From positions 1,477-65,476 of the forward strand of contig DAOPOS010000011.1 of NCBI GenBank assembly GCA_035358035.1: a DNA stretch of 64,000 nt, in the 5' to 3' direction. The stretch comes from Syntrophales bacterium. Lineage in GTDB: Bacteria > Desulfobacterota > Syntrophia > Syntrophales > UBA2251. Within the stretch, counting starts at the first letter, position 1. The number at the start of each line of letters is the position of its first letter. A program made the translations under genes and the position numbers. The notes beneath the pieces were generated by a model that was not told the DNA's origin, made no database searches, and saw nothing but the letters and a program-made list of their open reading frames with translations. Shown here piece after piece: positions 12,879 through 59,761 of this stretch.

Positions 12879-13486
12879 CGGACCGGGAGGGCCTTGGTGA
12901 AGCGATGAGCGAAGAAACGACCCTGCGGGCCTTCCTGGCCATCGAGCCCCCGGAGGCCGTGCGCGCAGAGATCGCCGCGATCCAGGAACGCCTGAAGAAG
13001 ACGGTCCGGGGGGTGATCCGGTGGGTCCGTCCGGAGGGGATTCACCTGACGCTCAAGTTCTTCGGGAACATCCCGCCGCCGGCCGTGGAGCGAATTTCGG
13101 CGGCGGTCGCGGCGCGGACCGCCGGGGTCGCCCCGTTCGACCTGACGGTCGGGACGGTCGGCGTTTTCCCCGATTTGAACCGCCCCCGGGTCGTCTGGCT
13201 GGGGATGGCGGGGGAGGTGGACCGTCTGCTCGGCCTGCAGAAGTCGCTCGATCGGGAATTCGGGGCCCTGGGGTTTCCGCGGGAGGAGCGGCCCTTCCGG
13301 GCGCACCTGACCCTGGGGCGGATCAAGACCCCGAAGGGGCTGGTCGGTCTGGCCCGGGCGGTCGAGACCGGCGAGACGGCGACGGCCGGTCCGTTCAGGG
13401 CCGATGACCTGATCCTGTTCCGGAGCGAATTGTCGCCGCAGGGCGCCGTGTATACCCGGCTCGCCGCCTTTCCCCTTCGGGGGTGA
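12875..13486 (+). CDS. thpR: RNA 2',3'-cyclic phosphodiesterase (ThpR/LigT, 2H family)
   Basis: Two HxT motifs (HLTLKF, HLTLGR). GTG 12875 overlaps the cinA stop (GTGA); alternative ATG at 12905. Confidence 0.75.
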   Translation: MTDREGLGEAMSEETTLRAFLAIEPPEAVRAEIAAIQERLKKTVRGVIRWVRPEGIHLTLKFFGNIPPPAVERISAAVAARTAGVAPFDLTVGTVGVFPDLNRPRVVWLGMAGEVDRLLGLQKSLDREFGALGFPREERPFRAHLTLGRIKTPKGLVGLARAVETGETATAGPFRADDLILFRSELSPQGAVYTRLAAFPLRG

Positions 13487-13670
13487 TCCGTCCCGGCCGG
13501 AAACGGAACGGGGGCGGGGATGAGCCGGCTCCCGCCGGGAAGCCGGGTTTCAAGGGGTCCGACGGACCCGGAGATGAGGATTGGCAGGAATCACGCTTTC
13601 GCAAAAGCGGGAAAAGGAAGAGGCATCCCCAAGAATGTTGAAGAGGAAAGATCATTATCAGGAGGTGGCT

Positions 13671-14687
<1,017 letters not shown>

Positions 14688-14691
14688 CGCC

Positions 14692-15168
14692 GTGGCGGAC
14701 CCCCTCTCCGACCAGGAGACCCTGGAGCGGGCCTTCCGGATGCTGGCCCGCCGCCCCCACAGCGAGCGGGAGATCCACCGGAAGCTCAGGGAAAAGGGGG
14801 CGGACGGAGCGGGCATCGCCCGCGTGCTGGAGCGGCTGCGGGAGCTGGGATACGTCGACGATGCCGCCTTTGCCCGGGGCTGGGCGAAGGGCCGGGCCGG
14901 CGGGCGGCTCTGGGGAAACCGCCGGATCGCGGCGGGACTTCGGGAGAAGGGCATCCCGGCGGAGATCATCCAGGCGACGCTGGCCGAGCTTCGCGAGGAG
15001 GTGGACGAGGGCGAATCCCTGCGGCTCTGGCTGGTCCGGAAGCTGCGCGGGCGGGACCCGGCGACCCTGGAGGAGCGGGAACGGCGGCGCCTGGCGCGAG
15101 GCCTGGCCGCGCGGGGGTTCCCGTCGGACCTGATCGTGCGGGCGTTGAAAGCGGGCACCGGGGATTAG
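14692..15168 (+). CDS. recX: RecA regulator RecX
   Basis: LARRPHSEREIHRKLREKG and repeated helical RecX pattern. GTG 14692 lies 5 nt after the recA stop; the ORF track start TTG 14656 is an alternative. Confidence 0.75.
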   Translation: MADPLSDQETLERAFRMLARRPHSEREIHRKLREKGADGAGIARVLERLRELGYVDDAAFARGWAKGRAGGRLWGNRRIAAGLREKGIPAEIIQATLAELREEVDEGESLRLWLVRKLRGRDPATLEERERRRLARGLAARGFPSDLIVRALKAGTGD

Positions 15169-15215
15169 GCGTTGGACGGCGGACAATTCATTTTCACGGG
15201 AGGCGGTTGTTTCAC

Positions 15216-17852
<2,637 letters not shown>

Positions 17853-46474: not shown

Positions 46475-46490
46475 TGGCACCCATTTTGCT
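46475..46490 (+). promoter_or_regulatory. sigma-54 promoter, consensus TGGCAC-N5-TTGCT
   Basis: Exact match to TGGCAC-N5-TTGCW, 58 nt upstream of the SDR gene's GTG. Confidence 0.8.
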
Positions 46491-46547: not shown

Positions 46548-47312
46548 GTGGATACATCCTATCTGTCACTGCAGGGAAAAGTCGCCGTCGTCACCGGAGG
46601 GAGCCGGGGCATCGGCCGGGCCGTGGCGTTGGCGCTCGCCGATGCCGGGGCCGATGTCGTCGTCGGCAGCCGCAAGCTGGCCGATCTTGAAAAGGTCGCC
46701 GAGGAGATCAGGGCCATGGGGCGAAAGGCCCTGGCGGTGGCAATGCACAACCGCGAGGTCGAAAGCATCAGGAATTTCGTCGATACCGTCGTGAAGGAAT
46801 TCGGTCGCATCGACATCCTCGTGAACAATGCGGCCACCAATCCCGGCATGGGGCTGCTCGTCGACATGGACGAGAAGATGTACGACCAGATCATGATCAC
46901 CAACCTCAAGGGCTATACCATCCTGAGCCAGCTCGTGGGAAAGGTCATGCAGCAGCAGAAGAGCGGCAATATCGTCAACATCTCCTCCGTCGGCGGCGTG
47001 AGCCCCGATATCGGACTGGGGTTGTACTGCATCAGCAAGGCCGGGATCGGCATGCTGACCCGGGCGATGGCCAAGGAACTGGGTGATTTCGGCGTCCGCG
47101 TCAACTGCATCGCTCCCGGCGTGGTCCGGACGAAGTTCAGCCAGGCCCTGTGGAGCAATGAGCCGATGATGAAGCAGGAACTCGCCCACACGCCGATCAA
47201 ACGCATCGCCGAGCCGGAAGAGATCGGGCGGATCGCCCTGTTCCTGGCGTCGGACGCCTCGGCCTACATGACGGGGCAGATCCTGGTCGTCGACGGCGGC
47301 GGATCGATCTGA
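46548..47312 (+). CDS. short-chain dehydrogenase/reductase (FabG-like)
   Basis: GTG 46548 after AAAGGAG. TGGSRGIG, NNAA and YCISKAG (YxxxK) motifs. Confidence 0.85.
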   Translation: MDTSYLSLQGKVAVVTGGSRGIGRAVALALADAGADVVVGSRKLADLEKVAEEIRAMGRKALAVAMHNREVESIRNFVDTVVKEFGRIDILVNNAATNPGMGLLVDMDEKMYDQIMITNLKGYTILSQLVGKVMQQQKSGNIVNISSVGGVSPDIGLGLYCISKAGIGMLTRAMAKELGDFGVRVNCIAPGVVRTKFSQALWSNEPMMKQELAHTPIKRIAEPEEIGRIALFLASDASAYMTGQILVVDGGGSI

Positions 47313-47370
47313 GGACGGGTCGTCAATTCATCCCTCAGCCGGAGAGAATGCATAAGGAGGCACGGGTACC

Positions 47371-48813
47371 ATGGGTTTAATGACCGCACAGGAGTACAAG
47401 GACAGTTTGAATGACGGGCGCATCGTCTACTACAAGGGACGAAAGATCGACAACGTCGCCACGGATCCGGATTTGAAGGCCTGCGTCGAGACCCTCGCCG
47501 TCGACTACGAAATGGCCCACGATCCTCAGTACAAGGAGCTTGCCCTCGTGTACGACGAGCAGCTGGGCGAGAATATCAGCCGCTATTACCACACGCCGCA
47601 GAACGGGCAGGACCTCCTCAAGCAGCTCGAGCTCATCATCAAGGCCACGGAACTCGGCGATGGCTATATCCCCCTGGCCCACGACATCGGCGCGGACGCC
47701 CTGAATGCGATCGCCATCACGGCGCGGTCGATGAAGGACGCCGGCAAGGTCTATCTGGAGCGCATCGAGAACTTCCGCACGTACCTGAAAAAGACGGACA
47801 AGTGCATCGTCGCGGGCGTGACGGACGTCAAGGGCGATCGGAGCCTGCGGCCTTCCGATCCGAAACAGAATCACCCCGATTTCAACGTCCGGATCGTGGA
47901 GCGGAACGACCAGGGCATCATCGTGCGCGGCGCCAAGGTCCATATCACCGGGGCGGCCTATGCCCACGAATTCTTCGTCATCCCCTGCCGGGCCATGACG
48001 GATGCGGATTCGGATTACGCCGTGGCCTTCGCCATCCAGGCGAACGCCAAGGGGATCCGGCAGATCGTTCGCCCTTTCCACGGACGGATCAGCGATATGG
48101 AGTTTCCGGTCAAGCGGGAGCTGCGCCGGATGCACACCGATTCTCTCATCATCTTCGACGATGTCTTCGTCCCCTGGGACCGGGTCTTCCTGTGCGGCGA
48201 GGTGAAGTTCGCCGCCTCCATCGTCTACAACTTCGCCCTGATGCACCGCCGCACGGGCTGCGCCTACCGCATTCCCCTGAGCGAGCAGCTCCTGGGGGCC
48301 GCCGTGGCGATCGCCGACTACAACGGCGTGGCCGATGCTCCGCACGTCAAGGAAAAGATCACGGAGTGCGTCATCTATCTGGAAACCCTTTCTGCCCTGT
48401 CCCGGTCCGCCTGTCTCGACTTCGTGGACCATGCGGGCATTCCGGTGCCCAATCCCATGACCACGAACATCGCGAAGTACCACTTCGCCCACAATTATCA
48501 CAAGATCGTCGAGATCGTTCAGGACCTGGCGGGCGGACTCCTCGTCACCGCCCCGACGTATCAGGACTGGTGCAATCCCGAGACGCACGGCGACATCGAC
48601 AAGTACCTGGGTGGAAAGGCCGGCCTGCCGACGGAAACGCGTCTGCGCATGTTCGACCTCATCCGCCGGATGACCTCGGCGGACCTGGAGACGATCTGTC
48701 TCCACGGGGAGGGTTCGCCCTACGCCGAGCGGATGACGATCCTGATGGAGGCCCGCGGGCTCATCAAGAAGTGCAAGCAGATCGTCGAGGAACTGGCCGC
48801 GATCAAGAAGTGA
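47371..48813 (+). CDS. 4-hydroxybutyryl-CoA dehydratase / HpaB-family flavoprotein homologue, apparently lacking the N-terminal Fe-S cysteines
   Basis: The C-terminal half (ADYNG, HVKEKI, LAGGLLVT, RLRMF, HGEGSPYAERMTI) resembles AbfD. The region aligned to the AbfD CxxxC reads GDGYIPLAHDIGADALNA. Confidence 0.65.
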   Translation: MGLMTAQEYKDSLNDGRIVYYKGRKIDNVATDPDLKACVETLAVDYEMAHDPQYKELALVYDEQLGENISRYYHTPQNGQDLLKQLELIIKATELGDGYIPLAHDIGADALNAIAITARSMKDAGKVYLERIENFRTYLKKTDKCIVAGVTDVKGDRSLRPSDPKQNHPDFNVRIVERNDQGIIVRGAKVHITGAAYAHEFFVIPCRAMTDADSDYAVAFAIQANAKGIRQIVRPFHGRISDMEFPVKRELRRMHTDSLIIFDDVFVPWDRVFLCGEVKFAASIVYNFALMHRRTGCAYRIPLSEQLLGAAVAIADYNGVADAPHVKEKITECVIYLETLSALSRSACLDFVDHAGIPVPNPMTTNIAKYHFAHNYHKIVEIVQDLAGGLLVTAPTYQDWCNPETHGDIDKYLGGKAGLPTETRLRMFDLIRRMTSADLETICLHGEGSPYAERMTILMEARGLIKKCKQIVEELAAIKK

Positions 48814-48976
48814 AGGCCTCCCGGTGGGAATGTCCCGGATGCGCTTTCCGCCCGCGGGCGGGGGTGCGTCCGGGCGGGGCGCCTTTTCGGGGAGTTTCGT
48901 GCCGCGCCGCTGAAGTCCGGCGTCAAGCCACGGAGGCGGGGAAGGCGCGAAGCGTTTGTTGGTGAGGAGGAGAATC

Positions 48977-50443
48977 ATGATCGGTATCACATCTTTTGGG
49001 GGGTACATCCCCCGTTTGCGATTGAGCCGGAAGCTGATTGCCCAGAACGTGGCGTGGTACTCGCCGGTCATCTGGGGCGCGGCCCAGGGGGAGAAGGCCG
49101 TGGCGAACTGGGATGAAGACGCCCTGAGCATGGCCGTGGCGGCCGCGCAGGACTGCCTGCTGGGACGGGACAGAACGCAGGTTGACGGCGTCTATGCCGC
49201 CTCGACGACCTTCCCGTTTACGGACCGTCTCAACGCCGATATTCTGGCGACGGCCCTGAACCTGAACGAGGACGGGACGGCCTGTGCGGATTTCACGGGC
49301 TGTCTGAAGGCCGGAACGACGGCCGTCATCTCGGCCCTGGAGGCGATTCAGGCCGGCGGAAAGACGCGCGTCCTCGTGGCGGCGGGCGACCAGCGGCGGA
49401 CGAAGATGGCGACCAACTTCGAAATGTTCCTGGGGGATGGGGCGGCCGCCCTGCTGCTGGGCAGCCAGGAGGTGATTGCCGAATTCAAGGGCGGCTATTC
49501 CCTCAGCTGCGATTTCATCGATCATTATCGCGGCGCCGGCAAGGAGTTCGACTACGCGTGGGAGGAGCGCTGGGTCCGGGATGAGGGATACGGCAAGATC
49601 ATCCCCCGGGCCATCGCCGGCTTCCTCAAGAAAACGGGCCTGACCATCGGCGAGTTCGACAAGGTCGTCTATCCCTGCTACTTCAGCGCCACCCACAGGG
49701 GGATCGCCAAGAAGCTCGGGCTCGATCCGGCGAAGGTGCAGAGCAACCTTCACGAGGTCTGCGGAGACACGGGCGCGGCGCACCCGCTGGTCATGTTCGT
49801 GGCGGCCCTGGAAGACGCCAGGCCCGGCGACAAGATCCTCCTCGTGGGGTTCGGCCAGGGCTGCGACGTCCTGTATTTCCAGATCACGGACGCGATGTCG
49901 GAGTATCGCGGCGGTCAGGGCGTCAAGGGCTCGCTCGCGAAGCGGGCGGAATTGACGAGTTATACGAAATTCATGAAGTTCCGGGATATCGTCACCGCGG
50001 ATCTGGGCATTCGCGGCGAGGCCAATCCGAATTCGTCGCTCAACATCCTGTGGCGGAACCGCAAGAAGCTCATCGGCCTGGTCGGCAGCCGCTGCAAAAA
50101 ATGCGGAACGCCCCAATACACCTTTACACCCGTCTGCGTGAATCCGGACTGCAACGCCGTCGGCGATATGGAAGACTACGCGTTCTCCGGTCAGAAGGGG
50201 ACGGTCTTCATGTATACGGGCGACATGCTGGCCGCTTCGGTCGATCCGCCGGCGATCTACGGGATCGTGAACATCGAGGGCGGGGGCCGGCTGCTGGCCG
50301 ATTTCACGGACTGCACGCTGGAGGATATCAAGGTGGGGCTTCCCGTCCAGATGTCGTTCCGCCGGAGGTCGAAGGACCCCGTGCGCGGGTTCAGCGGCTA
50401 TTTCTGGAAAGTCGTCCCGCAGGCGACCGAGAAGGGGGTGTAA
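48977..50443 (+). CDS. HMG-CoA synthase-like condensing enzyme fused to a DUF35 zinc-ribbon/OB-fold domain
   Basis: ATG 48977 after GAGGAGG. DEDALSMAV and FTGCLKAGT (Glu and Cys motifs). C-terminal CKKCGTPQYTFTPVCVNPDC plus an OB-fold. Confidence 0.7.
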   Translation: MIGITSFGGYIPRLRLSRKLIAQNVAWYSPVIWGAAQGEKAVANWDEDALSMAVAAAQDCLLGRDRTQVDGVYAASTTFPFTDRLNADILATALNLNEDGTACADFTGCLKAGTTAVISALEAIQAGGKTRVLVAAGDQRRTKMATNFEMFLGDGAAALLLGSQEVIAEFKGGYSLSCDFIDHYRGAGKEFDYAWEERWVRDEGYGKIIPRAIAGFLKKTGLTIGEFDKVVYPCYFSATHRGIAKKLGLDPAKVQSNLHEVCGDTGAAHPLVMFVAALEDARPGDKILLVGFGQGCDVLYFQITDAMSEYRGGQGVKGSLAKRAELTSYTKFMKFRDIVTADLGIRGEANPNSSLNILWRNRKKLIGLVGSRCKKCGTPQYTFTPVCVNPDCNAVGDMEDYAFSGQKGTVFMYTGDMLAASVDPPAIYGIVNIEGGGRLLADFTDCTLEDIKVGLPVQMSFRRRSKDPVRGFSGYFWKVVPQATEKGV

Positions 50444-50445
50444 CG

Positions 50446-51654
50446 ATGGCTACGGGAATCAGGGACAAGGTTGCCATTATTGGCATGGGATGCACCAAAT
50501 TCGGCGAACGCTGGGATTGCGGTCCGGAAGACCTGATGGTGGAGGCGTTTCAGGAATGCCTGAGCGACGCCGGGATCGGGAAGAACGAGCTCCAGGCGGC
50601 CTGGTTCGGCTCCTGCCTGGATGAGGTGAACGTCGGGAAGAGCGCGCTGCCGCCCTCCCTGGCCCTGCGCCTGCCCAACATCGGCGTGACGAGGGTGGAA
50701 AATTACTGCGCGAGCGGCACGGAGGCCTTCCGGGGCGCCGTCTACGCCGTCGCGTCGGGGGCCTATGACATCTGCCTGGCCATCGGCGCCGAGAAGCTCA
50801 AGGACATCGGGTACGCGGGGCTGCCGGAATTCTCGGCCGGGATGGGCCTGACCAACCAGCAGTGGTTCCCCAACATGACCGCGCCGGGGTGCTTTGCCAT
50901 GCTGGCCAGCGGTTACAGCGCCAAATACGGGGTGGACATGAAGGAACTGAAGCGCGCGATGGCCCACATCTCGGCGAAAAGCCACGCCAACGGTGCCCTC
51001 AATCCCAAGGCGCACCTGCGGGCGCCGGTGACGGAAGAGGTCATCCTGAAGGCCCCCATGGTGGCCTATCCCCTGGGGCTTTTCGACTGCTGCGGCGTCA
51101 GTGACGGCTCGGCCTGCGCCATTGTCGCGACGCCGGAGGTGGCCCGGCGCCTCGGGAAGAAGGATTTCGTGACGGTCAAGGCCCTGCAGATGTCGCTGAG
51201 CAACGGCGAGGAGATGTCCTACACCAACTGGGACGGCTCCGGCTTCGTCACGACGGCCAAGGCGAGCGCCGCGGCCTACCGGGAGGCCGGGATTACGAAC
51301 CCCCGGGAGGAGATCAGCATGATGGAGGTCCATGACTGCTTCTCCATTACGGAACTCGTGACCATGGAGGATCTGCACATCTCCGCGCGGGGGGAAGCGA
51401 CGAAGGACATCATGGACGGCTTCTACGACCTGAACGGCAAGGTGCCCTGCCAGGTGGACGGAGGGCTCAAGTGCTTCGGACATCCGATCGGCGCCTCGGG
51501 GCTGAGGATGATTTACGAGATGTACCTCCAGCTTCACGGCCGTGCCGGCCAGCGGCAGCTCGAGAATCCCCGATACGGTCTGACCCACAACCTGGGCGGA
51601 TTCCCGTTCATGAACGTCTGCAGCATTGCCATCGTCGGCAGGAACGAGGCCTGA
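50446..51654 (+). CDS. SCP-x/archaeal-type thiolase
   Basis: ATG 50446, 3 nt after the upstream stop. ENYCASG nucleophile motif, plus HDCFS and CFGHPIGASG. Confidence 0.8.
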   Translation: MATGIRDKVAIIGMGCTKFGERWDCGPEDLMVEAFQECLSDAGIGKNELQAAWFGSCLDEVNVGKSALPPSLALRLPNIGVTRVENYCASGTEAFRGAVYAVASGAYDICLAIGAEKLKDIGYAGLPEFSAGMGLTNQQWFPNMTAPGCFAMLASGYSAKYGVDMKELKRAMAHISAKSHANGALNPKAHLRAPVTEEVILKAPMVAYPLGLFDCCGVSDGSACAIVATPEVARRLGKKDFVTVKALQMSLSNGEEMSYTNWDGSGFVTTAKASAAAYREAGITNPREEISMMEVHDCFSITELVTMEDLHISARGEATKDIMDGFYDLNGKVPCQVDGGLKCFGHPIGASGLRMIYEMYLQLHGRAGQRQLENPRYGLTHNLGGFPFMNVCSIAIVGRNEA

Positions 51655-51748
51655 TGGATGTCCCGGGCCGGGGGAGTGCCGGGACAGACGGCGGCCCCCC
51701 GGCGATCCAGGATGATTCTGCAAGGATGAGAGGAGCGCAGGAACCGGA

Positions 51749-52657
51749 ATGCCGCCCTTGATTCAGACGGAATTCACCTCCGTGATGGGCATCCGCTATC
51801 CCATCATCGGGGCGCCCATGTTTCTGGTCTCCTACGAGGAGCTCGTCGTGGCCGTCTGCGAGGCCGGGGGGCTCGGCATGCTTCCCCTGCCGAATTACCG
51901 GACAGCGGAGCAGCTGCGGCGGGCCCTGGACGTCATCCGCTCCCGGACGGAGGCGCCGGTGGGTGTCAACATCCACCTCTCCGGAAAATTTCCCTGGCAG
52001 GAACAGCTCGATCTCTGTCTCGATCATGGGGTGAAGTTCTTCATTACGTCGCTCGGCGATCCCCGCCTGATCCTGGATGCCGTGCATGCGCACGGGGGAT
52101 GGGTGTTCGCCGACGTCGTCTCGCTCGCCCAGGGACTGAAGGCGAAAGCGGGCGGCGTGGACGGTCTGGTGGCGGTGGGGGCCGGCGCCGGCGGTCATGG
52201 TGGCCGGATCTCGACGCTTGTTCTCGTTCCGTACCTGAAGGAGGCGATCGGACTGCCCGTGGTCGCGGCGGGTGGCATCGCGACCGGCGCTCAGATGGCG
52301 GCGGCTCTCGCGGTCGGCGCCTGTGCGGTGATCGTGGGGACTCGGTTCATCGCCACGCCCGAATCCAGGGCCTCCGCGGCTTACAAGCAGGCGGTCATCG
52401 ACGCCGACCCGGACGGCATCGTCTGCACGGATCGAATCACGGGCAATCCGGCGAACTGGATCGCCGCGAGCATCGCGGACATGGAGGAGCGTCCGCCGCT
52501 CACCTCGAAAAAATGGCTGGATTTCTGGAGCGCGGGACAGAGCGTGGCCCAGGTGAGGAACATCCGGCCGGCGGCGGAGATCGTCGCCGAGATGGTGCGC
52601 GAGTATGGTGAGACGTGCCGACGCATGCAGGGCACGGTGGTATCGAACGGAACGTGA
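51749..52657 (+). CDS. nitronate monooxygenase / FabK-like FMN oxidoreductase
   Basis: YPIIGAPMFLVS, GGLGMLP and VVAAGGIATG motifs of the NMO/enoyl-reductase II family. Confidence 0.75.
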   Translation: MPPLIQTEFTSVMGIRYPIIGAPMFLVSYEELVVAVCEAGGLGMLPLPNYRTAEQLRRALDVIRSRTEAPVGVNIHLSGKFPWQEQLDLCLDHGVKFFITSLGDPRLILDAVHAHGGWVFADVVSLAQGLKAKAGGVDGLVAVGAGAGGHGGRISTLVLVPYLKEAIGLPVVAAGGIATGAQMAAALAVGACAVIVGTRFIATPESRASAAYKQAVIDADPDGIVCTDRITGNPANWIAASIADMEERPPLTSKKWLDFWSAGQSVAQVRNIRPAAEIVAEMVREYGETCRRMQGTVVSNGT

Positions 52658-52676
52658 TCAAGGGAGGAGGTCCACC

Positions 52677-53861
52677 ATGAGTAAACTGAAGGGAAAGGTC
52701 GCCATCATCGGGATCGGCGAAGTCCCCACGGGGAGATTTCCGGAGACGGCGGCCATCTATCACGCCATTGCCTCGGCCAGGCTGGCCATCCGGGATGCCG
52801 GAATCCAGAAGGACGAGATCGACTATGTCATGCCCACGGCGGCGCTGTTCAGCCCCCAGTTCAACACGGAACTCGTGACCTGTCGGGTGGCCGAGGAACT
52901 GGGGCTCAAGAACGTGAAGAAGAACTGCCAGGTGTTCGCGGGCGGTTCCAGTAGCACCTGCGCCCTGGAAATCGCCGCGAGCCTCATCAACAGCGGCGCG
53001 GCGAACATGATCCTGTTCGTCCATGCCGACCGCCTGGGGACGGGCGTCTCCGCGCAGGGCGGCATCGATCTGTTCTCCACCGCCGGGATCTCCGCGGAGT
53101 GGGAAGTGCCGTTCGGCCAGCATTACTCGGCGATCGCCGCCATGTCGACCATGCGCTACAAGTACGAGACGGGCTGTACGGACGAGCACCTCTCGGCGGT
53201 CTGCGTCTCCAACCGAAAGTGGGCGCAGCTGAACCCCAACGCGATGTTCAAGAAGGACCTGACGGTCGAGGAGATCATGGCCTCCAAGCAACTCTCCACG
53301 CCGCTGAGGGTCAAGCACTCCAACGTCCTGGCGGATGGCGGGGCGGCCTTCATCGTGACCTCGGCCGAGCGGGCGAGGGCCATCTGCGAGCGTCCCGTGT
53401 ACCTGCTGGGCGAGGGGGGCGTCGTGACCCACTTCGTCTTTTCCCAGGAACCCGATGTCAGCCGGTTCGGATGGGCCAGGGCGGGGCGGATGGCCTTCGA
53501 GGAGGCCGGGCTCACCCCCAAGGACGTCGACGTGGCGGAGATCTACGATTCCTATCCGATCTACCAGCTGATCGGCTTCGAGGAGCTCGGTTTCGCCGAG
53601 CGGGGACAGGGCGGCGAGATGTTCCTGAAGGGCGATACCTGGCCCGGCGGGAAGATTCCGACGACGACCAATGGCGGCATGCTGTCGCAGGGGCATACGG
53701 GTGCCGGCGGCGCCGTGGCCCTGATGGTCGAGACGACGCGCCAGTTGATGGGCAAGGCCGGCGTGCGGCAGGTCCAGGGGGCGCGCTTCGCGGTCGAGAC
53801 GGCCGTCGGAGGGACGTACATGGACGCCCAGGTCACCATCCTGGGAACGGAAATTCCGTAG
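52677..53861 (+). CDS. thiolase-superfamily protein lacking the catalytic cysteines (Ltp2-like?)
   Basis: ATG 52677 after GGAGGAGG. Aligned by eye to the neighbouring thiolase: NYCASG becomes FAGGSS, HDCFS becomes YDSYP, and GH is retained (SQGHTGAGG). Confidence 0.7.
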   Translation: MSKLKGKVAIIGIGEVPTGRFPETAAIYHAIASARLAIRDAGIQKDEIDYVMPTAALFSPQFNTELVTCRVAEELGLKNVKKNCQVFAGGSSSTCALEIAASLINSGAANMILFVHADRLGTGVSAQGGIDLFSTAGISAEWEVPFGQHYSAIAAMSTMRYKYETGCTDEHLSAVCVSNRKWAQLNPNAMFKKDLTVEEIMASKQLSTPLRVKHSNVLADGGAAFIVTSAERARAICERPVYLLGEGGVVTHFVFSQEPDVSRFGWARAGRMAFEEAGLTPKDVDVAEIYDSYPIYQLIGFEELGFAERGQGGEMFLKGDTWPGGKIPTTTNGGMLSQGHTGAGGAVALMVETTRQLMGKAGVRQVQGARFAVETAVGGTYMDAQVTILGTEIP

Positions 53862-53877
53862 GGAGAGGAGGTCAGTC

Positions 53878-54297
53878 ATGGATACACCCGTTAAACCCAA
53901 ACCAGTTCCGGTCGTCAATCCCTGGGCCAGGCCCTTCTGGGAGGCGGCGCGGGAAAACAAGCTGATCATCCAGCAATGCAAGGATTGCGGCACCTACATC
54001 TTCTACCCGCGGATCGCCTGCACGAACTGCTTTTCGGACAACGTGGCCTGGGTGCCGGCGTCGGGCCGGGGGAAGGTCTATACGTACACGGTCGTCGAGA
54101 GCTATCCGCCCTCGGCCTTCATTCCCGATCTGCCCTTTGTGGTCGCCGTGGTCCGCCTGGAGGAAGGGGTGCAGATGCTGAGCAACATCGTCGGCTGCGA
54201 TCCGCACAGCGTCTATTGCGAAATGCCGGTGACGGTCGTTTTCGAGAAATTGAACGAGGAATTCACCCTGCCGAAGTTCAAGCCGGTGGAAGCGTAA
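53878..54297 (+). CDS. DUF35 zinc-ribbon/OB-fold protein
   Basis: CKDCGTYIFYPRIACTNC four-Cys ribbon, followed by GKVYTYTVV OB-fold; 139 aa. Confidence 0.8.
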   Translation: MDTPVKPKPVPVVNPWARPFWEAARENKLIIQQCKDCGTYIFYPRIACTNCFSDNVAWVPASGRGKVYTYTVVESYPPSAFIPDLPFVVAVVRLEEGVQMLSNIVGCDPHSVYCEMPVTVVFEKLNEEFTLPKFKPVEA

Positions 54298-54341
54298 GGT
54301 TCCGCGGCTCGGACGGGGCGGTTGGATCAAGGAGGTGGATC

Positions 54342-54791
54342 ATGTCGCAGAAGTGCTGGGAAGATTTCGATATCGGCTTCAATTTCCGGACGCCGTCCAT
54401 CACGGTGACGGAGACGCATGTGGTGAACTGGGCGGGCTTGACCATGGATTTTTACCCCCTCCACATGGACGCGGAGTATTGCGCAAAGACGGTCTTCAAG
54501 GAGCGGATCGCCCACGGGCCGCTCATCTTCGGGATGGCCGTCGGCATGGCGGGCCTGGCGAAGGTGGAGGGCGGGTCGATCCTCGCCTGGATGGGCGTGG
54601 ATCAGATGCGCATGAAGGCCCCGGTCAAGTTCGGGGACACGATTACGGTCCATATCGAAACGGTGGAGAAGAAGGAGACGAGCAAGCCCTCGCAGGGATT
54701 GCAGACCTGGCGTTATACGGTGAAGAACCAGCGCGACGAGGCCGTCATGGTTTTCGACATGAAGTTTCTGATGCGCCGGAAAGGCGCCTGA
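54342..54791 (+). CDS. MaoC-like (R-specific) enoyl-CoA hydratase
   Basis: ATG 54342 after GGAGGTGG. Hot-dog fold motifs DFYPLHMD and IAHGPLIF. Confidence 0.8.
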   Translation: MSQKCWEDFDIGFNFRTPSITVTETHVVNWAGLTMDFYPLHMDAEYCAKTVFKERIAHGPLIFGMAVGMAGLAKVEGGSILAWMGVDQMRMKAPVKFGDTITVHIETVEKKETSKPSQGLQTWRYTVKNQRDEAVMVFDMKFLMRRKGA

Positions 54792-54857
54792 CGCCCGCGC
54801 GGACGGTCCCCCTCCCTGCCGGGGGAGGCGCCGGACGTGTTTGGAAGGAGACGGAAC

Positions 54858-56015
54858 GTGGATTTCAATTTCAGCGAGAAGCAGAATGCGTTGCGGGAGA
54901 AGGTGCGGGGATATACCGAGGCCAACATTTCCCGGGCCGTGGTTCGTGAAATCGAGGAGAGGGACGAGTTCCCCCACGATCTCGTGGAAAAATTCTGCGA
55001 ACTGGGGCTGGCCAGGATCAATATCCCCGAGGCCTACGGAGGCCTGAACGGCGACATCGTGGACTTGATGATCGTCTTCGAGGAGATCGCCAAGCGGTCC
55101 CCCGTCCTGTGCTGGAACCTCGGCAACATCCTCCTGTACGGCAACGAGATCATCGGCGTGAACGGCAACCGGGCCCAGAAGGACGAATATCTCCCGAAAC
55201 TGGCCCGGGGCGAGATCATGTTCAGCTTCGCCATTACGGAGCCCAACGCCGGTTCGGATGCCGCCAGCATCAAGACGCGGGCGCTGGAGGCGGTTCCGAA
55301 GGACGGGTCCTACGTGATCAACGGCGGCAAGATGTTCATCACCGGGGCGGGTGTGACGCAGTACACGGTGACGTTCGCCCGGACCGCCGAATCGAAATAC
55401 GGCGGCATCACGTCCTTCGTCGTCGACACGTCCCTGGCGGGTTACAGCGCGAAGCCGATCAAGAAGCTCGGCTTCCACGGGTCGAATACCTGCGAGGTGG
55501 TCTACGACAACGTCCGGGTGCCCCCGCAATCCATTCTCGGCGGGGAGGAAAAGGGGCTCAACAACGGCTGGAAGCAGGAGATGAAGCTCTTGAACCAGGA
55601 GCGGCTCGTCCTGTCGTCCATGACGCTGGGCATGGCGCAGTCCTCCTTCGACGAGGCCCTGCAGTTTGCCCGGGAGAAGATGCAGCGGACCGATCCGGGC
55701 ACGGACGTGCAGTCGATCCAGCACGACATCGCCGAGATGGCTTCGGAGCTGGAGGCCATGAAGGTCCTGGCCTACAGCGCGGCCTGGAAGGAGGCGCAGG
55801 GGTTGAACCCGGTCCGGGAAACCTCCATGACCAAGTACTTCTGCGCCGAGACGGCCAAGCAGATCATCCTGAAAGGGATGAACGTCCTGGGCGAGAGCGC
55901 CTCCTCCATGGACTACGAGATGCAGAGAAACCTCCGGGAGATTCTCATCTTCTCCATCGGTGGAGGGACGTCGCAAATCCAGAAGAACATCATCTGCAAG
56001 ACCTTTGGACTTTGA
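54858..56015 (+). CDS. acyl-CoA dehydrogenase
   Basis: GTG 54858 after GGAAGGAG. FNFSEKQNALREKV and ITEPNAGSD motifs; C-terminal IGGGTSQIQKNII. Confidence 0.85.
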   Translation: MDFNFSEKQNALREKVRGYTEANISRAVVREIEERDEFPHDLVEKFCELGLARINIPEAYGGLNGDIVDLMIVFEEIAKRSPVLCWNLGNILLYGNEIIGVNGNRAQKDEYLPKLARGEIMFSFAITEPNAGSDAASIKTRALEAVPKDGSYVINGGKMFITGAGVTQYTVTFARTAESKYGGITSFVVDTSLAGYSAKPIKKLGFHGSNTCEVVYDNVRVPPQSILGGEEKGLNNGWKQEMKLLNQERLVLSSMTLGMAQSSFDEALQFAREKMQRTDPGTDVQSIQHDIAEMASELEAMKVLAYSAAWKEAQGLNPVRETSMTKYFCAETAKQIILKGMNVLGESASSMDYEMQRNLREILIFSIGGGTSQIQKNIICKTFGL

Positions 56016-56085
56016 GGGCCGGCCGAACCGGGGGATGAGCGGGGGGCAGCCGGACCGATTATGCGTTGACGGAAGGAGAGGGAAC

Positions 56086-58095
56086 ATGGGGCGGATTTTT
56101 ACGTGCAGCAACGAGGACGGCATCGCCGTGGTCCGGTTCGACGTGCCCGGCGAGGCGATGAACACCTGGACGGAGGAGGCCATCGCGGATTTTGCCGTTC
56201 TGCTCGAAACCCTGGAGAAGGAAAAGTCGGCCTATCGGGGTGTGATCTTCATCTCCGGCAAAAGCACGAATTTTCATGCCGGGGCGAATCTGAACATGCT
56301 GGGGGCGGAGAAGGACCTGGCGGACTTCCGGAAGGGGTGCGACGCGTTCAACGGGCTCTTCATCCGGCTGGAAAACCTCGGCATCCCCACCGTGGCCGCC
56401 ATCCATGGCCCCTGCATGGGCGGGGGGTATGAATTCGCCCTGACCATGACGGCGCGGATCGCGACCGACAGCAGGCGGACGACGATCGGCCTGCCCGAGT
56501 GCAACGTGGGCGTTATCCCCGGCGCCGGCGGCACCCAGCGTCTCCCCCGGCTCATCGGCTATCCGGCCCTGGATTTCATCCCCCGCGGCGCCGTTCTGCC
56601 CGCGGCCAAGGCCCTGGAGGTCGGCATGGTCGACCGGGTGATCCCGGAGGGGGACGACCTGCTGGCCAAGGCGAAAGGCCTGCTCGTGGAGATCATCGCC
56701 GGGACGGCCGGGCTGAAGCGTGAGAAGCCGGACCTGTCCGCACTCGACGCGACGCTCGAGGCGGCGAAAAAGAACGTGCTCAAGGCGACGCGGGGACGGG
56801 CGATACCGGCGCCGATGCTGGCGCTCAAGGCGATGAGCGAGGGACTCAAGGTGCCGATCGAGCAGGGCTTGAAGATCGAAACGGACTGTTTCATCGAGGC
56901 GCTCAAGGCCCCGGAATGCAAGGGGACGATCAACACCTTCTTCCTGAAGACCCTCTCCGACAAGCCTCAGGCCATGATTCCCAGGGGATTCGAGCCCAAG
57001 CCCATCCGGACATTCGGCGTCCTCGGCTTCGGCACGATGGGGCGCGGGATCGTCATCAACATCCTGACCCGGACAAAGCTGCCCGTCGTCGTCAAGGACG
57101 TCTCCGAAGCCCTGGAGCCGGGCATGGGCTTCATCCGGAAGATTCTGGAAGGCATGGCGGCCAAGAACCGCCTGAAGGAGCCCGTCGAGAACCTGCTCGC
57201 CCGGGTCAAGCCGGTGGCGGACTGGACAGACGACTTTACGGACGTCGATTGCGTCATCGAGGCCGTCTTCGAAGATCCCGCCGTCAAGGACCAGGTCTAC
57301 CGGGAGCTGTGCCAGACCGTCGCGGACGACTGCCTCCTGGCGACGAATACCTCGAGCCTGCCCGTGGACAAACTGGCGAAGAGCGTCTCGAACCCGGAGC
57401 GGTTCGTGGGGGCCCATTTCTTCTCCCCCGTCTGGATGATGCAGCTTCTGGAGATCATCCGGGGCCAGGCCACGAGCGACGCCACGACGAACAACATGCT
57501 GGCCGTCTGCGCCGCCCTCGGCAAGCGCCCGGTCGTCTGCAAGGACAACCCCGGGTTCGTGGTCAACGCCATGCTCTTCCCGTATTTCATCAAGGCCTTC
57601 GATCTCCTCGCGGAAGGCGTGCCCATGGACAGGATCGACGCGGCCATGATGAAGTTCGGCCTGCCCGTGGGGCCCATCCGCCTGACCGACGAGGTCGGGA
57701 TCGACGTCTCCTATCTCGTCCTGACGAAGTCCCTCGGGATGACGCCGCCGGTGGCCCTCGAGAACGTCTACCAGGCGGGTCGCTACGGCCGAAACAAGAA
57801 CGGCAAGGGATTCTACGCGGCGGACGGGTCGCCCGATCCCGAGGTCCTGCCCCTGATCAATCCGGACAACAGGCAGAAGGACTATTCCGTGACCGAGCTG
57901 CAGAACATGCTCTTCACCCCCTTCGTCCAGACGGGTCACGACCTGCTTGGGAAGGGGGTCGTCAGCGATCCGCGGTCGATCGACATCGGCGCGATCTGGG
58001 GGGTCGGTTTCCCGGCCGACAAGGGCGGTCCGATGAAATGGGGCGACCTGATCGGATTGAGCGAGAAGCTCTACGGCAAGAAATTCTACGCATAA
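56086..58095 (+). CDS. bifunctional enoyl-CoA hydratase / 3-hydroxyacyl-CoA dehydrogenase (FadB/PimF-like)
   Basis: Crotonase AIHGPCMGGGYEFAL; NAD-binding VLGFGTMGRGI; HFFSPV motif. Confidence 0.85.
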   Translation: MGRIFTCSNEDGIAVVRFDVPGEAMNTWTEEAIADFAVLLETLEKEKSAYRGVIFISGKSTNFHAGANLNMLGAEKDLADFRKGCDAFNGLFIRLENLGIPTVAAIHGPCMGGGYEFALTMTARIATDSRRTTIGLPECNVGVIPGAGGTQRLPRLIGYPALDFIPRGAVLPAAKALEVGMVDRVIPEGDDLLAKAKGLLVEIIAGTAGLKREKPDLSALDATLEAAKKNVLKATRGRAIPAPMLALKAMSEGLKVPIEQGLKIETDCFIEALKAPECKGTINTFFLKTLSDKPQAMIPRGFEPKPIRTFGVLGFGTMGRGIVINILTRTKLPVVVKDVSEALEPGMGFIRKILEGMAAKNRLKEPVENLLARVKPVADWTDDFTDVDCVIEAVFEDPAVKDQVYRELCQTVADDCLLATNTSSLPVDKLAKSVSNPERFVGAHFFSPVWMMQLLEIIRGQATSDATTNNMLAVCAALGKRPVVCKDNPGFVVNAMLFPYFIKAFDLLAEGVPMDRIDAAMMKFGLPVGPIRLTDEVGIDVSYLVLTKSLGMTPPVALENVYQAGRYGRNKNGKGFYAADGSPDPEVLPLINPDNRQKDYSVTELQNMLFTPFVQTGHDLLGKGVVSDPRSIDIGAIWGVGFPADKGGPMKWGDLIGLSEKLYGKKFYA

Positions 58096-58177
58096 AAACG
58101 GAATTGCCGCACGCCGGAGGCCGCCTGTTCTGGGAACAGGCCGGCGCCCCGGGGCCGGCGAGAAAGGAAGGAACGTC

Positions 58178-59761
58178 ATGGCAACACTGTTTCACGGCAT
58201 CACCTGCGCGGACCTGTATGACCGTTCGGTGGCGGCTTTTCGTTCCCGCACCGCCATTCTCTTCAACGACGAGACGTACACCTACGACGCGCTGCAGAAG
58301 AACGCCTATTCCCTGGCCCATGCCCTCGACAAGCTGGGGCTCAAGAAGGGCGATCGGGTCGCGTTCCTGATGGCCAACTGTCCGGAATACATCTTCTGCG
58401 AGTATGCGCTGGGAAAGCTCGGGCTGGTCCGTGTTCCCCTGGCCGTTTTGCTCAGCTCCAAGGATCACATCTACATGATGAATCAGTCCGAGTGCAAGGC
58501 CCTGATCTACCATGAACGAATGGCCGGTCGGGTTCAGGAGATGATCCCCTCGCTCGAGACGGTCAAGCAGTTCATCTGCGTGACCCAGGATCCGGCGAGC
58601 GTGATGTCCGGGCACGAGCACCTGCAGTCCCTGATCGCGGCGAACCCGCCGGAAGCGCCCCGGGTCGCGCTTGAATGCACGGACCTGGTCGCGATCTATT
58701 ACACCGGTGGCACCACCGGCCTTCCCAAGGGCGTGATGATGGACCACAACACCTGGGTGGGCACGTTTATCAGCGAGATGCTCCACCTGGGGCTGGATTG
58801 GGACGAGGTCTTCGCCTTCGCCACGCCGCTGACCCATGCGGGGGGGTGCCTGATCCTGCCAATCCTGCTGAAACGCGGGACCTGCGAGATCCAGGATCAT
58901 TTCGACCCGAAGCTCTTTCTGGAGCGGGTGGAGAAGGTCAAGGTCACGACGACCTTCATCGTGCCCACGATGATCTACGTCCTGCTCGATTATCCGGACC
59001 TCAAGAAGTACGACCTCGCCAGCCTGCGCAACATCATCTACGGCGCGTCCGCCATCGCTCCGGCGCGCCTGAAGCAGGCGGTGGACACGCTGGGGCCGAT
59101 CTTCACCCAGCTCTTCGGGCAGACGGAGTCTCCCATGATGATCAGCGCCCTGTCCCGTCAGGAGCACGTCATCGACGATCCGGAGCGGCAGATGAAGGTC
59201 TACACGTCCTGCGGGCGCCCGGTCATGACGGCCGACGTCCGCATCGTGGACGAGAACGGCAAGGAGCTGCCCCGGGGCGAGGCGGGGGATATCGTCTGCC
59301 GGACGATCAACATGATGACGGGCTACCTCAAGAATCCGGAACAGACGGCGGAGACGATCCGGGACGGCTGGCTGTGGACCGGGGACGTGGGAAAGTTCGA
59401 CGAGGAGGGGTACCTCTACATCGTGGACCGTTCCAAGGATATGATCATCAGCGGCGGGTTCAACATCTTCCCCCGGGAGATCGAGGATGTCCTCCATGAG
59501 CACCCCGCGGTGAAAAACGTGGCCGTGGTGGGCGTGCCTCACGAGAAGTGGGGCGAGGAAGTCACGGCGGTGGTGTCGCTGCATGCGGGCAAGACCGCGA
59601 GCGAAAAGGAACTCGTCCAGTTCGTCAAGGAGCGCAAGGGAAGCCTCCTGGCCCCGAAGAGCGTCAAGTTCTGGGAGGAGATTCCCCTGACGAACCTCGG
59701 CAAGCTGGACAAGAAGAAGATCCGGGAAATGTTCTGGAAGGGGATGGACCGCAAGGTGTGA
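58178..59761 (+). CDS. AMP-forming acyl-CoA ligase
   Basis: YTGGTTGLPKGV and GWLWTGDVGKFDEEGYLYIVDRSKDMI motifs. Confidence 0.85.
   Translation: MATLFHGITCADLYDRSVAAFRSRTAILFNDETYTYDALQKNAYSLAHALDKLGLKKGDRVAFLMANCPEYIFCEYALGKLGLVRVPLAVLLSSKDHIYMMNQSECKALIYHERMAGRVQEMIPSLETVKQFICVTQDPASVMSGHEHLQSLIAANPPEAPRVALECTDLVAIYYTGGTTGLPKGVMMDHNTWVGTFISEMLHLGLDWDEVFAFATPLTHAGGCLILPILLKRGTCEIQDHFDPKLFLERVEKVKVTTTFIVPTMIYVLLDYPDLKKYDLASLRNIIYGASAIAPARLKQAVDTLGPIFTQLFGQTESPMMISALSRQEHVIDDPERQMKVYTSCGRPVMTADVRIVDENGKELPRGEAGDIVCRTINMMTGYLKNPEQTAETIRDGWLWTGDVGKFDEEGYLYIVDRSKDMIISGGFNIFPREIEDVLHEHPAVKNVAVVGVPHEKWGEEVTAVVSLHAGKTASEKELVQFVKERKGSLLAPKSVKFWEEIPLTNLGKLDKKKIREMFWKGMDRKV

Follow-up and report, generated by a model that had tools for sequence, protein, structure and literature searches.

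We characterized two adjacent genes in a 64,000-nucleotide stretch of DNA (hereafter the window) that is part of contig C11 in the 2.75 Mb, 98.5% complete genome of a Syntrophales bacterium. Gene A (P0001) encodes a domain resembling 3-hydroxy-3-methylglutaryl-CoA synthase (HMGCS, also written HMGS) fused to a DUF35 domain, and gene B (P0002) encodes an SCP2-type thiolase. Based on residue conservation, family and structure matches, and gene context, we consider it probable that the products of A and B assemble into a thiolase complex of the bacterial fused HMGS-DUF35/ACAT kind, in which A is a pseudoenzyme scaffold, B is the only catalyst, and the pair has a thiolytic role in a beta-oxidation-like operon.

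The fusion in gene A is not an assembly artefact. The reading frame has no internal stop, a ribosome-binding site (GAGGAGGAG) lies 5 nt 5' of the ATG, and gene B starts 3 nt past the last base of the gene A stop codon, leaving a 2-nt spacer. The domains of both genes are supported by Pfam, NCBIfam and PDB searches. In the C-terminal part of gene A, OB_ChsH2_C (PF01796) scores 36.7 bits against a cut-off of 27.1, and the zinc ribbon PF12172 scores 22 bits, just below its 23.2 cut-off, with all four cysteines present (Cys373, Cys376, Cys387 and Cys392). These cysteines are invariant in 50 of 50 orthologues and are retained in 113-120 of 124 full-length family representatives chosen at the 50% clustering level, the set used for all family-wide column counts below. 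The same region matches the archaeal DUF35 chain 6esq_E (E 3.6e-17). We rule out mis-assembly because the full-length architecture is kept in more than 4000 database proteins and in 573 clusters at 50% identity (E <= 1e-30), because the same fusion occurs at 97% identity in a genome of the same genus, and because an AlphaFold2 model of the whole chain is one confident fold (pLDDT 86.5, pTM 0.90; single chain). The first-pass annotation of the window had described this fusion, its tight coupling to an SCP2/SCP-x-type thiolase and a kinship with the archaeal thiolase/HMGCS/DUF35 complex; all three hold, the last through matches to the chains of 6esq.

The HMGCS-like domain has lost its catalytic tetrad. 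In archaeal HMGCS the tetrad consists of E82, C114, H238 and N270, and mutating these four residues abolishes HMG-CoA formation (PMC12960953). We read the corresponding positions from a HMMER alignment of gene A to the archaeal HMGCS chain 6esq_I, with PhlA (5m3k_A) also aligned. Thr77 (AASTTFPF in gene A) occupies the position of the glutamate (VGSESHPY in the archaeal enzyme), Leu110 (ADFTGCLKAGT) that of the cysteine (ADLEFACKAGT), Pro233 (VYPCYF) that of the histidine (VFHQPN) and Asp264 (GDT) that of the asparagine (GNT). Across the family, column 77 is Thr in 105 of the 124 representatives and Glu in none, column 110 holds Leu, Gln or other residues and never Cys, and column 233 is occupied by Pro, Tyr or Ala. 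Cys109 immediately precedes the nucleophile position and belongs to a column filled by Ser (105), Cys (6), Thr (6), Gly (3) or Ala (2). Among 50 close orthologues this column is divided between Cys (24) and Ser (24), it is Ser in the paralogue from the same genome, and both HMGCS and PhlA have Ala there. This reads as the signature of a small buried residue and not of a nucleophile. The DED at residues 46-48, invariant in the gene A family and also found in PhlA and HMGCS, is a structural motif and not the catalytic Glu.

These alignments also settle what the first-pass annotation had made of the domain. The motifs that it quoted are present (DEDALS at 46, FTGCLKAGT at 106 and VVYPCYF at 230), and the absence of the catalytic His, noted there by eye, is confirmed by Pro233 in a real alignment. 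Its identification of DED and Cys109 as the catalytic Glu and Cys does not stand, Thr77 and Leu110 being the aligned residues. It had further suggested that the HMGCS-like domain catalyzes a condensation or cleavage used catabolically. Because both the Glu and the Cys are lost and Cys109 sits at the -1, small-residue position, the domain is most likely not the catalyst of such a reaction, and the C-C chemistry most likely belongs to thiolase B.

Our family placement of the HMGCS-like domain rests on curated cut-offs, the residue columns above and the ranking of PDB matches. The best family match, the archaeal-type HMGCS model NF003274, scores 186 bits (E 9.5e-55) under a cut-off of 244, and two other models of bona fide HMGCS are also below their thresholds (TIGR00748, 126.5 bits against 353.35; TIGR01835, 39.2 bits against 360.35). 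The nearest solved protein by both sequence and structure is PhlA (E 3.9e-38; Foldseek E 9e-30, TMt 0.84), followed by archaeal HMGCS 6esq_I (Foldseek TMt 0.90), with MucA also near. At the level of the genome, HMG-CoA reductase (PF00368), the one further mevalonate-pathway enzyme that was searched for, was not found, and control genomes gave matches in the same search. IspG/GcpE of the methylerythritol phosphate (MEP) pathway is present, and gene A and one paralogue are the only HMGCS-like sequences. Judging from this gene content, with no HMG-CoA reductase found and IspG present, gene A does not serve mevalonate-pathway HMG-CoA synthesis.

The thiolase encoded by gene B retains Cys88 (CASG), His296-Asp-Cys298-Phe (HDCF) and Gly-His346-Pro (GHP), and all three motifs are invariant in 67 of 67 thiolases (B and 66 orthologues from related loci). 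It scores 688.4 bits with NF004810 (PRK06157, SCP2-type thiolase), well over the cut-off of 403. Its best solved relatives are the archaeal acetoacetyl-CoA thiolases 7yvy_A (E 4.5e-55, 190 bits) and 6esq_A (E 6.5e-53, 183 bits); BbsB comes after these, with a moderate match to the BbsB model (147 bits against a cut-off of 750), and PhlC-like chains are far lower at 83 bits. B is also better conserved than A (mean identity of 74% versus 51-67%), which argues for selective pressure on B as an enzyme. The closest biochemical precedent in architecture is the P. fluorescens ACAT/HMGS-DUF35 complex, in which the tetrad is absent, neither HMG-CoA nor acetoacetyl-CoA is made, acetoacetyl-CoA is cleaved and a mutant in the HDxF His is nearly dead (Nat Commun 2026;17:2196, PMC12960953).

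We therefore propose the following division of labor as a working model. B would split a 3-oxoacyl-CoA with free CoA to give acetyl-CoA (or propionyl-CoA) and a shortened acyl-CoA, with Cys88 carrying the acyl group and HDCF and GHP providing acid/base catalysis, and its 3-oxoacyl-CoA substrate would be made by dehydrogenases of the operon. A would be a pseudoenzyme, in which the HMGCS-like fold is kept, the Glu-Cys-His-Asn tetrad is gone and DUF35, which archaea have as its own subunit, is fused on, and it probably binds and stabilizes B. The DUF35 module is expected to clamp the thiolase, as in 6ESQ, PhlACB, MucABC and BbsAB. The dead HMGS-like body may complete an interfacial CoA chamber shared with B, as in the archaeal and PhlACB/MucABC complexes; this chamber is preserved even in complexes that are not HMG-CoA synthases (PMC12960953). 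Analogy with SDR-fused relatives (short-chain dehydrogenase/reductase, SDR) and with the archaeal KT/DUF35 complex further suggests A as a possible docking site for the preceding 3-hydroxyacyl-CoA dehydrogenase. As a whole, the pair would serve the thiolytic step of a sigma-54-controlled, importer-linked operon for an organic acid.

The genes around A and B fit such a role (Table 1). The operon lies behind an exact match to the sigma-54 promoter consensus, and 5' of it are a TPR-GAF sigma-54 activator and a liv-type ABC importer in which a ligase is embedded. The importer, the ligases, the acyl-CoA dehydrogenase (ACAD) and the sigma-54 control together point to the degradation of an imported organic acid. 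The degradative setting with its sigma-54 promoter and the exclusion of isoprenoid biosynthesis, both read from the window in the first-pass annotation, are thus upheld by the promoter match and by the genome search above. Every gene between 39321 and 63837 encodes transport or acyl-CoA enzymes, and no polyketide synthase (PKS) or nonribosomal peptide synthetase (NRPS) is among them. The SDR encoded by the first operon gene is a candidate 3-hydroxyacyl-CoA dehydrogenase feeding the thiolase. We found no sigma-70 promoter and no convincing terminator within the operon. A GC-rich hairpin followed by CCUUUUC in the 163-nt spacer between the HpaB-like gene and A (48814-48976) is not significant against shuffled sequences (z = -1.5), and an internal attenuator or terminator is therefore not supported.

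Table 1. Features of the A/B operon in the window, and the paralogous locus elsewhere in the genome.
Feature	Position	Strand	Remarks
Gene A (P0001)	48977..50443	+	ATG 48977, TAA 50441-50443, 488 aa; fused pseudo-HMG-CoA-synthase-like domain and DUF35
HMGCS/PhlA-like thiolase-fold domain of gene A	48977..49996	+	residues 1-340; T77, L110, P233 and D264 at the tetrad positions
DUF35 domain of gene A	50051..50419	+	residues 359-481; zinc ribbon, then OB fold; ribbon Cys at nt 50093-50152
Gene B (P0002)	50446..51654	+	ATG 50446, 402 aa; catalytically intact SCP2-type thiolase
Sigma-54 promoter TGGCACCCATTTTGCT	46475..46490	+	exact consensus, 0.05 expected by chance; 59 nt 5' of the first operon gene
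SDR (FabG-like) oxidoreductase, first operon gene	46549..47312	+	Pfam adh_short_C2; GTG start with ribosome-binding site
AbfD/HpaB-family flavoprotein	47371..48813	+	without two of the [4Fe-4S] cysteines; conserved gene directly 5' of A
NMO/FabK-like FMN oxidoreductase	51749..52657	+	operon context; also adjoins A-SDR/B in locus L004 and in the conserved operon
Second thiolase-like protein	52677..53861	+	without catalytic Cys and His; second module of the operon
Free-standing DUF35	53878..54297	+	second module of the operon
MaoC hydratase	54342..54791	+	second module of the operon
ACAD, then FadJ-like hydratase/dehydrogenase, then acyl-CoA ligase	54837..59761	+	start codons approximate
Acyl-CoA ligase	58178-59761	+	last listed operon gene
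Paralogous locus, own genome	contig C31:13631-22800		TetR regulator, SDR-SCP2 protein, 905-aa fusion, SCP2-type thiolase, ACAD, family III CoA transferase, crotonase, MaoC-like protein

Several neighbors deserve separate comment. The listed open reading frame of the SDR begins at ATG 46467, which overlaps the sigma-54 promoter and is probably not the true start when compared with GTG 46549. For the AbfD/HpaB-family protein, the nearest matches are 4-hydroxybutyryl-CoA dehydratase 1U8V (E 1e-71) and a vinylacetyl-CoA isomerase (6VJR). The protein has no Cys where the 1U8V segment SCFQRCVG aligns, a segment that we take to bear the cluster ligands Cys99 and Cys103. In the second thiolase-like protein the nucleophile is gone (GGSSST where B has YCASGT) and EVHDCF of B is replaced by EIYDSY (His to Tyr, Cys to Ser). 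Together with the free-standing DUF35 and MaoC, this Cys-less thiolase forms a pattern reminiscent of Ltp2/Sal-type retro-aldolases.

Four other genomes match the ten-gene operon gene by gene: one of the same genus (G008), two that belong to a different family within the order (G111 and G016; A at 72-73% and B at 89% identity) and a metagenome-assembled genome (MAG) from the Spirochaetes (A at 69%, B at 82%). The AbfD/HpaB-family neighbor is 81-98% identical in these four. In the Spirochaetes MAG (L008, ERZ25039527 contig_13484), the SDR, HpaB-like protein, A, B, Cys-less thiolase, DUF35, MaoC, ACAD and FadJ-like genes match window positions 46549-58095 at 63-82% protein identity (50% for the SDR). 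Because the whole operon is kept at this level in another phylum, these comparisons suggest that it was transferred between phyla as a unit.

More widely, the closest named relatives of gene A come from Syntrophaceae MAGs. A search seeded with an 11-sequence alignment identified at least 596 loci in species-representative genomes, mainly from Syntrophaceae, Desulfobacterales, Desulfomonilaceae, Chloroflexota and Spirochaetia. Within the order, 63 of the 121 sampled genomes, from 39 of 58 genera, carry a copy. Homologues at 30-45% identity are found in cultured Proteobacteria and Rhodococcus, and the family also occurs on large plasmids of cultured aerobes (Variovorax, sphingomonads, Azoarcus KH32C and Rhodococcus). 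The pairing with the thiolase is nearly constant: among 38 loci whose flanks extend 6 kb or more in each direction, 37 have A followed by B, as does every metagenome context that we read. The usual partners of the pair are an MFE-2-type SDR with SCP2, ACADs, a family III CoA transferase, pairs of MaoC hydratases and crotonases, and such a set is also found in Syntrophales relatives, in aerobic Variovorax paradoxus and at the paralogous locus on contig C31. In two Deltaproteobacteria MAGs (L001 and L009), which share a cassette of the CoA-transferase/A/B/MaoC-pair/SDR type and carry different A proteins, a phytoene-desaturase/amine-oxidase-like FAD protein and an FAD/NAD/2Fe-2S reductase lie 3' of the cassette (locus coordinates 13361-16029).

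A second recurrent feature of the family is fusion to further domains. The 905-aa paralogue is a four-domain protein composed of a dead HMGS-like domain, DUF35, an MFE-2-type SDR and SCP2. The 80 best loci hold 74 complete homologues: 23 are A alone, 9 are of 600-810 aa and 42 exceed 850 aa, so that 51 carry extra C-terminal domains. The class above 850 aa, whose length matches the A+SDR+SCP2 form, is thus the commonest among these 80 closest loci. In locus L004, A-SDR, B and the NMO-type oxidoreductase form a compact unit.

These fusions raise the question of whether A does more than support B. In an extension of our proposal, A would be the hub of a bacterial beta-oxidation metabolon that docks the SDR, and perhaps MaoC, beside B to channel 3-oxoacyl-CoA. 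Recruitment of the neighboring dehydrogenase is suggested by the SDR fusions and by the archaeal (Sulfolobus) KT/DUF35 complex, which was found to dock a MaoC dehydratase together with an SDR reductase (bioRxiv 10.1101/2024.07.05.601840). In a bolder variant, Cys234 and His269 would give the HMGCS-like domain a new ligand-binding or catalytic function in an operon-specific subfamily. We regard this extension as tentative and rather unlikely. If true, the metabolon would mirror, in the degradative direction, the archaeal KT/DUF35 complex for fatty acid synthesis, and the fusion of SDR and SCP2 onto the scaffold would be a hard-wired form of docking in most of the closest homologues from other species.

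Several points count against the simpler proposal of a silent scaffold and a thiolytic B. Complex formation, scaffold function and the direction of the reaction are all inferred for the A/B pair. The former active-site region of gene A is highly conserved in the family (S76-T77-T78 and R/K111). Cys234, the next residue past the former His, and His269, which lies five residues beyond the former Asn, are invariant in 50 close orthologues; the wider family is variable at both positions (Cys234 in 10 of 124 and His269 in 59 of 124). Such a conserved former active site appears compatible with a retained ligand-binding function or even another catalytic one, and Cys234 and His269 may mark a ligand or catalytic site peculiar to the subfamily or may simply reflect close relatedness. 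Finally, the FabK-like reductase, SDR, MaoC and thiolase of the operon could run in the synthetic direction.

This last point is the basis of the strongest competing explanation, in which the module mainly condenses and carries out chain elongation independent of acyl carrier protein, in the manner of reverse beta-oxidation or an archaeal fatty acid synthase. B would perform the condensation, the scaffold would recruit the SDR ketoreductase and MaoC dehydratase to drive the otherwise unfavourable Claisen step, and the FabK-like enzyme would reduce the enoyl-CoA. The operon encodes the SDR, MaoC, NMO/FabK-like enzyme and thiolase that this requires, SDR fusions are common and A-SDR, B and NMO adjoin in L004, the archaeal KT/DUF35/KR/HCD complex offers a precedent, and Syntrophales are known for reversible pathways. 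Against it, the operon stands behind an importer and has acyl-CoA ligases, an ACAD and a FadJ-like NAD-dependent enzyme, which is typical of degradation; at other loci the pair commonly occurs with ACADs and CoA transferases; and the P. fluorescens complex did not condense acetyl-CoA (PMC12960953). We therefore judge elongation improbable, though it deserves more weight than the two explanations that remain.

We reject as very improbable that A is a functional HMG-CoA synthase of the archaeal type, or a variant condensing enzyme, to which acetoacetyl-CoA is channelled from B, whether for isoprenoids or for a catabolic condensation or cleavage: the fold and best family matches of A are of the archaeal type (NF003274 and 6esq_I), none of the archaeal complex's three components is missing and Cys109 adjoins the nucleophile position, but the four tetrad residues are replaced in A and family-wide, Cys109 alternates with Ser, every curated HMGCS cut-off is missed, HMG-CoA reductase was not found in a genome that has IspG, and the homologous architecture that has been assayed yields no HMG-CoA, and mutating the tetrad kills the archaeal enzyme (PMC12960953). 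We reject with equal firmness a Friedel-Crafts C-acyltransferase of the PhlACB/MucABC type, CoA-independent or using acetyl-CoA, that would act on a phenolic or tetramic-acid-like molecule: A matches PhlA best in sequence and structure alike, and PhlA and MucA likewise lack the tetrad (PMC12960953), but HDxF is gone in PhlC and MucB and the corresponding HDCF is invariant in B, B fits archaeal thiolases far better than PhlC-like chains, and the operon has no type III PKS or NRPS-PKS, its neighbors all being acyl-CoA enzymes.

The reading of A as a non-catalytic partner of thiolase B has consequences for annotation. Members of the gene A family are named "3-hydroxy-3-methylglutaryl-CoA synthase", "3-oxoacyl-ACP synthase III C-terminal domain protein" or "OB-fold protein", and under the first of these labels, anaerobes that lack both a mevalonate pathway and ketogenesis can appear to have one or the other. 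Treating these proteins as non-catalytic partners would correct metabolic reconstructions of Syntrophales, about half of whose sampled genomes carry the family, and of other Thermodesulfobacteriota. The architecture and core biochemistry of the complexes were already known, having been published in January 2026 together with a count of ~1000 "minimal" bacterial HMGS-ACAT-DUF35 loci (PMC12960953). What is new here is the beta-oxidation context, the ten-gene operon in four other genomes and the SDR+SCP2 fusions. In the literature we found no physiological role for the gene A family in anaerobes, and the only biochemical paper left the role open, treating the Pseudomonas complex as an intermediate stage in evolution that lacks a defined pathway (PMC12960953). 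The conserved embedding in beta-oxidation genes and the frequent SDR/SCP2 fusions are at odds with this view. Judged by their context, the physiological setting of bacterial HMGS-DUF35/ACAT complexes would be complete beta-oxidation cassettes, many of them R-specific, and the fusions point to a substrate-channelling assembly that can be tested.

The A/B pair combines features of several known systems. With peroxisomal MFE-2 (HSD17B4) and SCPx, the partners of the gene A family share an MFE-2-type SDR, a split hydratase-2 (MaoC), SCP2 domains and an SCP2-type thiolase, although the domains are distributed otherwise and the peroxisomal system has nothing that corresponds to the dead HMGS-DUF35 scaffold. 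In BbsAB (benzoylsuccinyl-CoA thiolase, PDB 7PXP), Ltp2-ChsH2(DUF35) and the Sulfolobus KT/DUF35 complex, a thiolase-fold enzyme of acyl-CoA metabolism likewise has a zinc-ribbon/OB protein as its obligatory partner, and the SDR and MaoC docked in the Sulfolobus complex parallel the SDR fusions of the gene A family; these systems differ in having no HMGCS-like domain. The archaeal thiolase/HMGCS/DUF35 complex (6ESQ) is built from the same three blocks and folds, including an HDxF SCP2-type thiolase, whereas in A the HMGCS unit is dead and fused to DUF35, and the setting is catabolic, in a genome where no HMG-CoA reductase was found. PhlACB (the Pseudomonas protegens ATase, PDB 5M3K/5MG5) and MucABC (9VBO/9VBT) resemble A and B in having a non-catalytic HMGS-like subunit and catalysis in the thiolase-like subunit. 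They differ in that PhlC and MucB lack HDxF, the acceptors are phenolic or tetramic, PKS/NRPS genes are adjacent and DUF35 is a separate protein, whereas B has HDCF and lies among acyl-CoA enzymes. The greatest likeness is to PfACAT/HMGS-DUF35, to which we matched A/B by architecture and published description and not by sequence comparison: both have a fused HMGS-like and DUF35 protein that has lost E-C-H-N, an adjacent ACAT with Cys, HDxF and GHx, and no PKS/NRPS nearby, and for both thiolysis of 3-oxoacyl-CoA is the expected reaction. The present pair differs in its gene order (A then B) and in its host, an uncultured anaerobic Syntrophales bacterium, and both here and in its relatives it lies within complete beta-oxidation-type operons.

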